Sequence record: PZ172995.1
Direction: 5' to 3' (one strand)
DNA from: a phage
Length of the DNA stretch: 64,000 nucleotides
The notes under the pieces were generated by a model. That model was not told where the DNA came from. It did no database searches and was given only the letters and a program-made list of their open reading frames with translations. Within the stretch, counting starts at the first letter, position 1. Each line of letters begins with the position of its first letter. The position numbers were made by a program, and so were the translations under genes. Positions 19,283 to 21,061 of the stretch are shown piece by piece.

Positions 19283-19311
19283 AAAATAAGCTATAACACC
19301 TGACTTGTCAA
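19283..19311 (-). promoter_or_regulatory. sigma70-like promoter candidate on minus strand (TTGACA-N17-TATTTT)
   Basis: Reverse complement of 19306-19311 is TTGACA, of 19283-19288 is TATTTT; ~45 nt upstream of ATG at 19238. Confidence 0.4.
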
Positions 19312-19417
19312 CAGATTTTATAGCTTATTTGGCAGATTTTTTATAAGGCTACTGCCATCCTTCCATACATTACCTAACCAAGCCGAACATCACACAACCA
19401 GACCGAGCCGCACCCCG

Positions 19418-19501
19418 CCTTATTAAAAGACCCTGTTTAAAGACCTTTTAAAAAGGTAAGTCTCATTTTAATGTAGCTGAGACTAACTACCCATACCTCA
19501 C
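19418..19501. repeat. conserved intergenic element, copy A (~85 nt)
   Basis: CCTTATTAAAAGACCCTGTTTAAAGACCTTTTAAAAAGG followed by a ~52-nt core (GTAAGTCTCATTTTAATGTAGCTGAGACTAACTACCCATACCTCAC) identical to 20842-20893; core carries inverted repeat AGTCTCA/TGAGACT; partial third copy at ~19557-19595. Confidence 0.7.
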
Positions 19502-19585
19502 CTTACCACGCCGAACAGTACCGGACTATACCAGACCATGCCGAACATTGCCGAGCCTTATTAAAAGACCCTCTTAAAGACCTTT

Positions 19586-19610
19586 TAAAAAGGAGCCTCC
19601 GAAGAGGCTA
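19586..19610 (-). terminator. rho-independent terminator on minus strand (UUCG loop)
   Basis: Minus-strand read: GTAGCCTC-TTCG-GAGGCTCC then TTTTT; directly downstream of stop of 19621..20061. Confidence 0.65.
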
Positions 19611-19620
19611 CCTAGTCAAC

Positions 19621-20061
19621 TTAGAAAGGTTTTCTACGTTGCTTGTTAATGTTAGCTTTCATAGCAGCTAAATGGTTTTGCTGTTCAATCAGTCGTGAAC
19701 GTTCTTGATGACTAAGTGCCATAGTGTTCACATTCTCAATTGCTTGAGTGGCTTGCTTTAAAGCACGACCAATCTTACCAGACATTTTACGTTTTGCAAT
19801 AGTTGCTTGATGTTTAGGTTCAACCACACGATAACCAACACCCATTGAAGCAACCAGATAAATCTTCTCTTCTTTAAGAAGCTTCTCAATAAACTTCTCA
19901 AGTCGGTTTAGACGTGTAAGTGCATAAGCCTTCATTTCATCTTCGTACTTAACAATGTCACCTTGATAAGTTGGCTTCGCAATACCTAAGAAGGTATCCA
20001 TCTCAGAATGTGATACAGTGTCACCGTAACTAAACTTTGCTGCTAATGCTTTTGTATTCAT
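19621..20061 (-). CDS. hypothetical protein (basic C-terminal half)
   Basis: 146 aa; no motif recognised; second gene of a two-gene unit bracketed by repeated intergenic elements. Confidence 0.45.
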   Translation of the reverse strand: MNTKALAAKFSYGDTVSHSEMDTFLGIAKPTYQGDIVKYEDEMKAYALTRLNRLEKFIEKLLKEEKIYLVASMGVGYRVVEPKHQATIAKRKMSGKIGRALKQATQAIENVNTMALSHQERSRLIEQQNHLAAMKANINKQRRKPF

Positions 20062-20063
20062 AA

Positions 20064-20666
20064 TTAAACGTTACCTTCTGAAATAACTTCTACAGAAAAA
20101 CGACCAAAGCGTGGACGCCAATCACCTACACCACAAAGGTTGCCAGCATTTTCCAGAACCATCAGAAGTTCCTCTCTGGTGATTTGCTCTTCATCGAACA
20201 TCAAACCGAACTCTACAGACCAGTCACGGAAGATTGGGCGGTAGCTCATAACTCGTGCTGTACCAATCTTAACAGACTTAGCATAGATAAAGTCTGGATT
20301 CTTAGCAAGTTCTTGTGGGTTTGCTGGACAGTTCTTGATAGCCATTGGGAAGACTACATCTGTCAGCATAATGGCTCGGTCAATTACCTTACCAAGTTTG
20401 TTGAGTTTTGCACCAGACTTGATACAAGCCTCAATCATCTCACCGTTCATAACAAAACCTAGCTGCTCATCGTAGTAACAAGAAGTTACCAGTTGGCTTT
20501 CTGCTAAGAGCGCATAGTCTTCGTCAGTCTTTTTACGTTTACTGGATAGAGACTTGTGATATTTTGTCAGAGGGTTTAATGGGTCTGACAGCGTATCGTT
20601 ATGGCTCAAGAAAGGGCGAGTACCAGTGATTTTGATATTTAACAGTTTCATAGCATTTAGCTCCAC
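20064..20666 (-). CDS. hypothetical protein
   Basis: 200 aa; no motif recognised; 2 nt gap to downstream gene suggests co-translation. Confidence 0.45.
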
Positions 20667-20808
20667 ACTTTAGTTGATTGTTAAGTTGTTTGTAAAGAAC
20701 CCTCAACAGAAGACTCTTTAGAAACTTGGTAGATTTTTAACGTGGCTACTACCATCCACCCTTACCGCGACACACCGAACCAGACCTTACACCACCTTAC
20801 ACCACCCC

Positions 20809-20893
20809 ACCTCATTAAAAGACCCTCTTAAAAGGCCTTTTAAAAAGGTAAGTCTCATTTTAATGTAGCTGAGACTAACTACCCATACCTCAC
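20809..20893. repeat. conserved intergenic element, copy B (~85 nt)
   Basis: CCTCATTAAAAGACCCTCTTAAAAGGCCTTTTAAAAAGG plus core identical to copy A; flanked by A/C-rich (minus strand G/T-rich) CACC/CCGAAC-repeat sequence as in copy A. Confidence 0.7.
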
Positions 20894-21061
20894 ATCACCG
20901 CACCATACTACACCTGACACCACCTTACACCACCGCACCATACCTGACCGAGCTACACATCACTTAAAAACCCTCTTAGAAAGACTCTTAAGTGATGCTG
21001 GTGAGTACCTGTTGGTTTATGCTGCTCAGTATACTCACCAAATTTTCTATGTCAACAACTT

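Follow-up and report, generated by a model that had tools for sequence, protein, structure and literature searches.

Positions 19277-21055 very probably carry, on the minus strand, a type II VIPR locus that is complete and falls in the SUSP1 clade, situated in a Felix O1-like phage of the genus Felixounavirus. VIPR (Viral Interference Programmable Repeat) is a CRISPR-like module that was first described in 2026 preprints and is defined as a vipr-vap gene pair with vrRNAs on either side, each vrRNA having 9-16 YNNGG repeats and an invariable tail; for the SUSP1 clade, a 1-nt-skip code and satellite targets have been reported (10.64898/2026.04.26.720920). A companion cryo-EM preprint described the Vipr filament and named the residues that contact GGY (10.64898/2026.04.26.720927), and the VIPR mechanism as cited here has its source in these two preprints from one laboratory (10.64898/2026.04.26.720920, 10.64898/2026.04.26.720927). 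The system is a newly described form of RNA-guided DNA recognition and a proposed ancestor of CRISPR RAMPs. In the window, by which we mean the whole 64-kb stretch of DNA that was analysed, it represents an already known system: the locus is essentially identical to the published VIPR and therefore adds no new kind of system.

The original prediction came from a reader of the raw sequence who had no databases at hand and who nevertheless picked out a genuine VIPR locus. The two-gene module with duplicated non-coding flanks is real, consisting of minus-strand genes of 195 and 146 aa between repeat blocks, and the suggestion that a small non-coding RNA might have been duplicated on both sides of an accessory gene pair came near the truth, because the flanks encode small RNAs of which the core is the structured 3' end. 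The gene pair is not mere accessory cargo, since Vipr and Vap1 are the protein parts of the system, and the flanks are not leaders or ordinary promoters.

Gene Content and Organization of the Locus

On the minus strand the locus is laid out as promoter P, vrRNAs U1 and U2, vipr, vap1, and vrRNAs D1 and D2. Its synteny is that of SUSP1 (ligase, array, vipr, vap, array, and gp159 homologue), and replication genes encoding ligase, DHFR, and polymerase surround it.

The vipr gene (20064..20651, minus strand) encodes a 195-aa minimal RAMP (Cas7-like) of the ~20 kDa class that polymerises on GGY-NN repeats. Its start is better placed at the ATG at 20651, which is preceded by GGAG 9 nt upstream and is annotated as the start in GenBank relatives and SUSP1, than at the GTG at 20666 that opens the 200-aa reading frame first proposed (20064..20666). 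Vipr of the window is 97% identical to SUSP1 Vipr, the threshold for membership of the SUSP1 clade being >90% Vipr identity (10.64898/2026.04.26.720920), and it matches PDB entry 36pp, "SUSP1 Vipr protein", with E = 7e-127. Vipr proteins have been characterized as minimal RAMPs of about 20 kDa with an RRM core, a G-loop, and a thumb (10.64898/2026.04.26.720920, 10.64898/2026.04.26.720927). G170, G174, and G183 of the C-terminal glycine-rich loop are invariant, and the contact residues H17, R138, D177, W178, and R179 are present; contact residue T175, as named in the cryo-EM preprint (10.64898/2026.04.26.720927), is V175 in both the window protein and SUSP1. An AF2 model of Vipr from the single sequence was unusable (pLDDT 47), and a 45-sequence alignment was used instead.

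Immediately downstream, vap1 (19621..20061, minus strand) encodes a 146-aa Vipr-accessory protein that is 99% identical to SUSP1 Vap1. Type II Vap proteins are predicted DNA binders, and vap1 enhances protection (10.64898/2026.04.26.720920). Neither Vipr nor Vap1 matched Pfam or NCBIfam, PHROGs lists both under "unknown function" with no informative family, and no PDB relative was found for Vap1. The remark that both proteins were without recognisable motifs accordingly holds for Pfam and NCBIfam, but recognisable relatives exist in SUSP1 Vipr and Vap1. Over the whole window, Rfam 15 returned no family at gathering score and ARAGORN no tRNA or tmRNA genes. Literature searches for RNA-seq or transcriptome papers on Felixounavirus returned nothing on the VIPR locus.

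Promoter P, a sigma-70-type match (21028..21055, minus strand; TTGACA-16-TATACT, 11/12 consensus positions), lies just after the stop codon of the DNA ligase gene, is kept in 30/30 related loci, and is annotated as a promoter in phage AYO145A. It is predicted from its position to read into the upstream vrRNA array and vipr. Between it and U1 lies the leader/spacer hairpin H2b (20958..20997, minus strand), a 10-bp inverted repeat of the form CATCACTTAA-(20-nt loop with GAGTCTTyTAAGAGGGT)-TTAAGTGATG, which recurs between vrRNAs of related phages in alternation with the H2a form. The H2a spacer hairpin, found by pattern at 20810..20848 on the minus strand (CCTTTTTAAAAGG-loop-TCTTTTAATGAGG) with further copies at 19556-19593 and 19418-19456, sits between vrRNAs in all related loci; at a guess, it might be a processing site or a promoter. 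An intrinsic-terminator-like hairpin detected by a terminator scan after vap1 (19587..19609, minus strand; AGCCTC-TTCG-GAGGCT followed by CCTTTTT, stem 19609-19594) is kept in all vipr-bearing loci, and its T-run doubles as the 5' arm of the H2a spacer that follows. D1 and D2 would consequently need read-through or a promoter of their own, and a consensus scan found no convincing promoter for them downstream of this hairpin. At the far end, a 19-bp AT-rich inverted repeat with 89% complementarity is followed by a T-run (19277..19330, minus strand) and carries in its loop the -35 box of promoter P2 (19311-19283, minus strand; TTGACA-17-TATTTT, 10/12 consensus positions), which serves the next gene (18855-19238) and is likewise annotated as a promoter in AYO145A. 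The flanks had been called gene-free, but they contain the two sigma-70-type promoter matches, the terminator-like hairpin, and four vrRNAs.

Pentamer Tracts and Structured Tails

The A/C-rich sequence of the flanks is the reverse complement of GGY-NN pentamers in a strict 5-nt register, with the consensus [G>T,A]-G-[T>C]-N-N on the minus (coding) strand. Its GC skew of -0.48 to -0.52 is the strongest C-skew near the locus. When both strands of the whole 64-kb window were scanned, only four such tracts were found, all in the flanks, which confirms that this style with its CACC/CCGAAC units is absent elsewhere in the window. What carries information in the flanks is not the core, the structured 3' tail of a vrRNA, but the A/C-rich sequence, which holds the GGY-NN guides.

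All four tracts lie on the minus strand. U1 (20885..20954) comprises 14 pentamers in strict 5-nt register (AGCtc GGTca ... TGTga GGTat), with the guide NN string TC.CA.AT.GC.GG.AA.GG.CA.GT.AT.GC.GA.GA; U2 (20762..20811) comprises 10 pentamers (GG.GG.AA.GG.AA.CT.TC.GT.GC); D1 (19493..19557) comprises 13 (TC.AA.TC.AT.CT.AT.CC.AC.TC.GT.AA.GA); and D2 (19365..19419) comprises 11 (GG.GC.TC.CT.TG.GA.TC.TT.TA.AA). The published criterion for a vrRNA is at least four, typically 9-16, tandem YNNGG repeats with conserved GGY and hypervariable NN (10.64898/2026.04.26.720920). Related loci were fetched via the neighbouring gp159-homologue protein, and 79 distinct guides of 7-20 repeats each (mode 11-12) were extracted from 32 loci. 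Across these 79 guides, pentamer position 1 is non-G in 24%, G occupies position 2 in 98%, position 3 always has a pyrimidine (T 89%, C 11%), and positions 4-5 are variable; tracts differ in length by multiples of 5 nt only. The SUSP1 locus was parsed here into 1 + 3 tract-plus-tail units, in agreement with the 1 + 3 vrRNAs reported by sRNA-seq (10.64898/2026.04.26.720920), which supports the vrRNA reading of the tracts. An exact scan of IMG/VR with the 14-mer GGTATGGGTAGTTA was abandoned as a locus finder, having returned at least 120 stretches, nearly all of them chance occurrences in unrelated contigs. Readings of the tracts as Chi-like or telomere-like repeats, as arrays of primase sites, or as a nut-like site for antitermination (the H2 loop is similar to boxA) were also considered and rejected, because each leaves the conserved GGY and the information-bearing NN bases unexplained.

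Each tract is followed by a tail of 37-38 nt that is identical to a SUSP1 tail. The U1 tail (type A; 20847..20884, minus strand) has the form GGGTAGTT-AGTCTCA-GCTACATTAAAA-TGAGACT-TACC and is the "core" of the original prediction; the D1 tail (type A; 19455..19492, minus strand) is identical to it. The U2 tail (type B'; 20725..20761, minus strand; GGGTGGA-TGGTAG-TAGCCACGTTAAAAAT-CTACCA-AG) has the sequence of the tail of SUSP1's single upstream vrRNA, and the D2 tail (type B; 19328..19364, minus strand; GGAAGGA-TGGCAG-TAGCCTTATAAAAAAT-CTGCCA-AA) that of SUSP1's last downstream vrRNA, type B always being the last before the gp159-homologue gene. The stem of types B' and B covaries (GGTAG/CTACC in U2 versus GGCAG/CTGCC in D2), and a satellite copy has GTCG/CGAC. 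In the type A hairpin, 13 variants compared keep pairing in 100% of cells (slid controls ≤35%), and three pairs are compensatory, with 0/500 shuffles reaching the observed covariation score. A candidate pseudoknot in this tail (GTAGT with GCTAC) is invariant, which makes covariation uninformative for it; the tail agrees with the invariable one of ~40 nt that the SUSP1 preprint gives for the clade, in which a pseudoknot is reported (10.64898/2026.04.26.720920).

The duplication noted between the flanks is real, although the identical stretch is 58 nt rather than 52 nt long (19444-19501 equals 20836-20893). The 46-nt string quoted for it occurs exactly twice in the 64-kb window (19456-19501 and 20848-20893), with 0 copies expected from shuffles. 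The 58-nt repeat is the common tail and spacer of vrRNAs U1 and D1; it is enclosed in a 157-nt repeat of 78% identity and corresponds to the 58-bp direct repeat "DR_4" annotated in phage wV8.

Predicted Satellite Targets

For all four guides of the window, the predicted target is a satellite island of E. coli. This island is ~10 kb in length, with serine recombinases and with tape-measure and baseplate genes of its own; among 5,426 complete E. coli genomes, 474 have a homologue of the baseplate gene. With a 1-nt skip, all 26 NN bases of U1 match the satellite tape-measure gene of E. coli MRE162 (L155, position 9596; TCGCAGATGGCTGGTAAGGGTCAGGTGATGGCTGAGGA), where other skip rules reach at most 18 and 200 shuffles at most 22. 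For U2, the satellite tape-measure gene has a site that agrees at 17/18 NN bases (L152, position 14287, with an identical site in L154; other skips ≤14, shuffles ≤16). D1 agrees at 22/24 with a satellite gene of 107 aa, read on its antisense strand (L153, position 5224, with the site present in L155 too; other skips ≤17, shuffles ≤20). The skipped base coincides with the wobble position, codon position 3, in each of these three of the four targets. In E. coli NCCP15648, the satellite agrees with D2 at 19/20 NN bases (L166, 4923-4951, minus strand; other skips ≤15), at a site that spans the start of a 291-nt gene beginning at 4930 and is not in wobble phase. This match surfaced only when 12 satellites were searched, the first eight having given 15/20, which is the shuffle level.

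When all 79 guides were compared with the 12 satellites at ≥90% NN identity, 34 guides passed with a skip of 1, against 1, 0, and 1 with skips of 0, 2, and 3, and none of the shuffled guides did. At a cut-off of 80%, 7-11 of 79 shuffled guides pass, so only matches of at least 90% are clean. The published 1-nt-skip code is thereby reproduced independently on a different set of phages, and concrete target predictions are obtained for the source phage, such as the perfect 13-repeat match of U1 in the MRE162 tape-measure gene. No self-match of ≥80% NN was found within the window. For D2, scanning the GTDB genomes with 20 bases returned nothing, and a target seen in two homologous environmental contigs (L162/L163) by an 18-base exact gapped scan of IMG/VR was discarded as lying at about chance level by a rough estimate from collection size; that site falls in a 176-aa ORF adjoining a dCMP deaminase, and the phage collection contains nothing related to the contigs.

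These results also bear on the idea of a replication origin in which the non-template strand, G-rich and C-poor and preceded by a strong promoter, adopts an R-loop or G-quadruplex, for which T4 oriF/oriG, ColE1, and the pentameric immunoglobulin switch repeats offer comparisons. The strong GC skew, promoter P directly upstream, the location among ligase, DHFR, and polymerase genes, and a GG-N3 spacing that could give two-tier quadruplexes would all suit such an origin. However, R-loops and G-quadruplexes need neither a pyrimidine at position 3 nor an exact 5-nt register, the frequency of non-G bases at position 1 of the repeats speaks against them, the NN bases carry information that matches a foreign element, and the same pentamer tracts also occur in chromosomal satellites. 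We consider an origin extremely improbable and retain the reading of the tracts as guides.

Gain and Loss of the Gene Pair in Related Phages

Of 30 related loci, 21 have the gene pair and nine lack it, with no correlation with the ligase allele. A single fused element remains in the nine loci without vipr and vap, and its vrRNAs are intact and match satellites; comparison with related genomes, which had been proposed as a check on whether module and repeats come and go together, shows the gene pair absent and the fused element present in these nine loci. Gene-less L130 carries exactly the outermost guides of gene-bearing L005, which is the outcome expected from recombination between the repeated tails and spacers. 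The 58-nt direct repeats allow loss or gain of vipr-vap by homologous recombination as a by-product. In the earlier notion of a transposed or recombined cassette, the recombined part is borne out by the nine loci without the gene pair and by the guides of L130 and L005. The complete genome of phage humlepung contains no Vipr homologue.

The same pattern could be taken to mean that the flanks are recombination or regulatory cassettes like the PeSLs (promoter-early stem-loops) of T4-type phages, whose promoter and terminator motifs shuffle an accessory pair without any RNA function. The uncorrelated presence and absence of the gene pair, the resemblance of L130 to a deletion derivative of L005, and the arrangement of P2 inside a stem-loop followed by a T-run, as in PeSLs, are compatible with this. 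The PeSL-like promoter-in-hairpin form is restricted to the P2 stem-loop (19277-19330), which is single-copy in the window, and the duplicated 58-nt stretch has no promoter match. Strict-register pentamers with conserved GGY and hypervariable NN, the 1-nt-skip satellite matches, and 97% identity to SUSP1 Vipr, for which binding of such RNAs has been shown, are all left unexplained, and the recombination is better regarded as incidental to the repetition of the tails. Such cassettes therefore appear very unlikely, and a VIPR locus with recombining tails is preferred.

The vipr-less phages with satellite-matching guides raise a small question on the use or loss of arrays. Satellites without vipr carry vrRNAs of their own; such satellites must borrow Vipr, which provides an analogy for the orphan arrays of phages. 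It is conceivable, though rather doubtful, that the orphan arrays of vipr/vap-less Felixounaviruses are kept by selection and are not deletion scars, being loaded in trans by the Vipr of a co-infecting phage or titrating the Vipr of a rival. If so, vipr-vap would, through the 58-nt tail and spacer repeats, be a "public good" that the phage population often loses and regains.

Proposed Mechanism

In SUSP1, vrRNAs of ~100 nt are recovered together with Vipr, and their complex with it represses transcription, as reported from sRNA-seq, pull-down, GFP, and plaque assays (10.64898/2026.04.26.720920). Given the near-identity of the two loci, the SUSP1 mechanism may be transferred to the window, and by this analogy vrRNA expression, Vipr binding, and repression probably take place in the source phage as well. 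Promoter P would drive U1 and U2 and then vipr and vap1, with D1 and D2 following. Each vrRNA would be ~100 nt long, with 10-13 pentamers and a structured 3' tail of ~38 nt, if its ends correspond to those in SUSP1. One Vipr protomer would bind per repeat and build a helical filament that sequesters every GGY and displays the two variable bases, and the NN dinucleotides could then pair with double-stranded DNA, every third target base being skipped. Transcription would be blocked by the complex on its target, Vap1 would strengthen the effect, and the likely purpose would be the silencing of a parasite of the phage.

The tracts might alternatively be mRNA-leader sites for a ring-shaped RNA-binding regulator, serving attenuation of vipr-vap or acting as a protein sponge. 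The model here is TRAP, which binds 11 (G/U)AG triplets with 2-nt spacers. The tracts resemble a TRAP site in having a triplet, a 2-nt spacer, and ~11 repeats, and the upstream array lies within the 5' leader of vipr. However, the protein that binds the repeats is known and assembles into an open helical filament in which each repeat takes one protomer, the repeat number varies from 7 to 20, the spacers encode targets, and arrays also occur downstream of the genes and in gene-less phages. The chance that a leader site of this kind is correct is accordingly minute, and the filament-bound guide RNA is the reading carried forward.

Comparison with Known Systems

The locus shares with the type II VIPR of Escherichia phage SUSP1 its gene order, genomic position, GGY-NN repeats, two tail types, spacer hairpins, and promoter and terminator signals; the predicted targets are also of one class, satellite islands that have tape-measure and baseplate genes. 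It differs in its host genus (Felixounavirus versus Suspvirus for SUSP1), in its 2 + 2 instead of 1 + 3 vrRNAs, and in all four guide sequences.

PeSLs (PMC2839356, PMC4122927) are similar in that repeated non-coding motifs with a sigma-70 promoter and a stem-loop flank dispensable genes that are gained and lost by recombination. Unlike the window repeats, which are the tails and spacers of guide RNAs, they are short promoter/terminator cassettes that recur in hyperplastic regions and have no known RNA product.

Class 1 CRISPR-Cas systems (Cas7/Csm3/Cmr4) have in common with VIPR the RAMP fold, one protomer per fixed RNA step, a thumb that flips bases out, and a constant handle that caps a variable guide. 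Their step is 6 nt with one base flipped, whereas that of VIPR is 5 nt with three bases sequestered, and the VIPR guide is non-contiguous. Sequence identity of Vipr to these proteins is only 8-13%, with no RAMP match in Pfam or NCBIfam. The window contains no CRISPR array of identical direct repeats and contiguous unique spacers, its repeats being 5-nt units with two variable bases, and no cas genes, including cas1/cas2, were recognised near the locus by Pfam or PHROGs.

The TRAP site of the Bacillus trp leader is alike in its conserved triplet, two-base spacer, ~11 copies, and one subunit per repeat. TRAP differs in recognizing (G/U)AG instead of GGY, in forming a closed ring instead of an open filament, and in acting by attenuation instead of DNA binding, whereas the spacers of VIPR carry target information.

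Identification of the locus as a VIPR system

The Felix O1-like myophage locus (19200-21100, 1.9-kb query) matched 239 phage records by BLAST, mostly of Escherichia and Salmonella Felixounavirus, and the best matches covered the query at 91-95% identity. All surrounding genes lie on the minus strand, on which a DNA ligase gene (21062-22198) is followed by the 195/200-aa ORF, the 146-aa ORF and then a 127-aa ORF (18855-19238). The original prediction described a two-gene module between duplicated non-coding elements with an identical core in unusual A/C-rich sequence, an observation that was confirmed as a whole. 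The 46-nt core that it quoted occurs exactly twice in the window; its length had been given as 52 nt, which does not hold, as identity is unbroken over 58 nt (19444-19501 and 20836-20893), a repeat annotated as 'DR_4' in phage wV8. In coding orientation, the flanking A/C-rich sequence consists of runs of pentamers, mostly GGTNN, and is indeed peculiar to the element, with just four such tracts in the 64-kb window. The most extreme strand-composition outliers of the window lie at ~63011-63110 and ~15321-15420, one with 4 G versus 31 C per 100 nt and the other with 28 G versus 4 C; a 5-nt GGY phase is absent from both.

A literature search on pentanucleotide repeats between phage genes retrieved a 2026 preprint that matches this pattern exactly. 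It describes the Viral Interference Programmable Repeat (VIPR) system, which is composed of vipr (a RAMP homologue of ~20 kDa), a vap accessory gene and flanking guide RNAs (vrRNAs) with 9-16 YNNGG repeats, conserved GGY, hypervariable NN and an invariable 3′ tail, and of which Escherichia phage SUSP1 carries the representative locus (10.64898/2026.04.26.720920). SUSP1 is among the BLAST matches to the window locus and has the same gene order; the 195-aa and 146-aa window proteins are 97% and 99% identical to SUSP1 Vipr and Vap1, respectively, and the window Vipr matches PDB 36pp ('SUSP1 Vipr protein') with E = 7e-127. Cryo-EM revealed that Vipr assembles into a right-handed filament with one protomer per repeat, in which GGY is sequestered and NN is presented to DNA, with every third target base skipped (10.64898/2026.04.26.720927). 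The GGY-contact residues H17, E71, M72, R138, C173, D177, W178 and R179 are all kept in the window Vipr. The same preprint counts T175 among the pyrimidine-pocket residues (10.64898/2026.04.26.720927); residue 175 is a valine in the window protein (20127-20129, minus strand) and also in SUSP1 Vipr (GNLCGVGDW), which is a numbering or ortholog discrepancy.

The intergenic regions of SUSP1 parse into one upstream and three downstream tract-plus-tail units, equal to the four vrRNAs detected by sRNA-seq (10.64898/2026.04.26.720920). One tract and its tail therefore make one vrRNA, which gives four in the window: U1 and U2 upstream of vipr, and D1 and D2 downstream of vap1. The feature belongs to a known system, being a SUSP1-clade VIPR locus of type II; the interpretation originally offered is partly right. 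What the result contributes is an independent computational replication and specific target predictions; as a discovery, it is of moderate to low interest.

Array architecture in related phages

Thirty related loci were compared (23 from IMG/VR and seven from GenBank). Their non-coding blocks are modular, and the unit, present one to three times, comprises a spacer hairpin of the H2a or the H2b allelic form, a tract of pentamers and a conserved tail. Between tracts, lengths differ by multiples of 5 nt only. Across 79 distinct tracts, G occupies position 1 of 76% and position 2 of 98% of pentamers, position 3 is either T (89%) or C (11%), and positions 4-5 vary freely; tracts contain 7-20 repeats, with a mode of 11-12. 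The type A tail is a hairpin of AGTCTCA-N12-TGAGACT or the allele AATCGGA-N12-TTCGATT, and three of its pairs have both sides changed; its 13 variants are 100% paired, compared with at most 35% in slid controls. The type B tail has a GGCAG/CTGCC or GGTAG/CTACC stem. Rare tail substitutions are repeated among the copies inside one phage, as in AYO145A, where both tails read AGTCTCAACTAC; because such copies share identical rare substitutions, the data suggest that upstream and downstream arrays exchange sequence by gene conversion.

Spacer hairpins are located between the vrRNAs at 20958-20997, 20810-20848, 19556-19593 and 19418-19456 (minus strand). The two interchangeable forms, CCTTTTTAAAAGG...TCTTTTAATRAGG and CATCACTTAA...TTAAGTGATG, have a common loop motif, GTCTTyTAAGAGGGT, with loose similarity to boxA (GCTCTTTAACAA); roles in processing, as a promoter or in antitermination are conceivable.

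Cassette dynamics and orphan arrays

The gene pair vipr-vap is missing from nine of the 30 loci, which instead carry one fused array of the order promoter match P, H2b, tract, tail A, H2a, tract, tail B, promoter match P2. The guides of one of these arrays (L130) correspond exactly to the outermost two, first and last, of ZX4221, a phage with vipr, as expected for the product of recombination between repeated tail/spacer sequences. Gene-pair presence is uncorrelated with the ligase allele across the 30 loci, and in phages with up to 8% ligase divergence, Vipr and Vap1 have 98-100% identity. On these grounds, the recombined cassette originally proposed correctly describes the population dynamics.

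Orphan arrays, with one to two intact vrRNAs between the ligase and gp159-homologue genes and without vipr or vap, were found in phage humlepung (L003/L160/L161; MN850564) and at loci L128, L130, L134, L136, L140, L142, L145 and L149. The humlepung genome, complete at 85,311 bp, contains two intact vrRNAs, and no Vipr or Vap homologue was identified in it by tblastn with 45 family members or by HMM search. The main text of the VIPR preprint does not contain the word 'orphan' or mention such arrays (10.64898/2026.04.26.720920).

Predicted targets in satellite islands

For the SUSP1 clade, guides are reported to target a satellite with a baseplate protein that shares 72% identity with the phage protein (10.64898/2026.04.26.720920). 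With the homologous window gene (5697-6494), which adjoins the tape-measure gene, as a query, we identified matches in 474 of the 5,426 complete genomes of E. coli, all chromosomal, with DNA identities of 70-94% over the initial 70% of the phage gene. The matches lie in islands, which are ~10 kb in length, are annotated with recombinase family proteins, tape-measure and baseplate genes and often an HNH endonuclease or methyltransferase, and occupy at least three integration sites (yciI/tonB, a DUF72 gene beside yecD, and ymdF/wrbA).

Guides were scanned as NNxNNx... on both strands of 12 islands (L152-L159 and L164-L167), and shuffled-guide maxima for the window guides were taken from the first eight. 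With one base skipped, U1 matches a tape-measure gene of strain MRE162 at 26/26 NN bases (best of skips 0, 2 and 3, 18; shuffled maximum, 22), U2 a tape-measure gene at 17/18 (14; 16), D1 the antisense strand of a 107-aa gene at 22/24 (17; 20), and D2 a site straddling the beginning of a 291-nt gene of strain NCCP15648 at 19/20 (15; 17). The skipped base is codon position 3 throughout the U1, U2 and D1 targets, but not the D2 target; this phase has been described for VIPR targets (10.64898/2026.04.26.720920). Overall, 34 of 79 guides reach at least 90% NN match at skip 1, versus 1/79, 0/79 and 1/79 at skips 0, 2 and 3 and 0/79 when shuffled; lowering the threshold to 80% brings in an appreciable background (7/79 shuffled guides). 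No window guide has a self-match of at least 80% inside the window. Computed targets of the window guides are satellite-island genes. Guides exclusive to vipr-less phages equal those of vipr-bearing phages in satellite matching at 90% or more (6/13 versus 22/64), with GGY fractions of 0.70 and 0.75, respectively.

D2 also matches, at 18/18 core NN bases and with the skipped base at the wobble position, a 176-aa ORF beside a dCMP deaminase on a pair of related IMG/VR contigs from uncultured phages (L162 1360-1385; L163 1856-1881), which have no relatives in the phage collection. By rough estimate, the number of such matches is about that expected by chance.

Two of the 12 satellites carry a vrRNA of their own with a B′-like tail (L159 3850-3899 and L165 3212-3276, both minus strand), with 10 and 13 GGY-NN repeats, respectively, and one of the two tails has a compensatory GTCG/CGAC stem. 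No Vipr or Vap homologue was found in the first eight satellites, among them L159; the vrRNA of a vipr-less satellite would have to depend on the Vipr of a helper phage.

Proposed working and comparison with known systems

By extension from SUSP1 results, a transcript of U1, U2, vipr and vap1 would start at P (21055-21028, minus strand), which lies ahead of the upstream block, and vrRNAs would be freed as ~100-nt RNAs. Vipr would polymerise on their repeats, the complex would bind matching double-stranded DNA and block transcription, and Vap1 would strengthen the effect. A terminator-like hairpin (19609-19594, minus strand) follows the 146-aa ORF and precedes D1 and D2. A 19-bp inverted repeat has P2 (19311-19283, minus strand) inside its loop: at 19277-19330 (minus strand), the −35 box of the promoter of the 18855-19238 gene is in the loop of this AT-rich repeat, and a T-run follows. 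This promoter/terminator overlap may end the vrRNA array, and it resembles the promoter-early stem-loops (PeSLs) of T4-type phages. The cassette dynamics of the window locus resemble the shuffling mediated by PeSLs in those phages (PMC2839356, PMC4122927).
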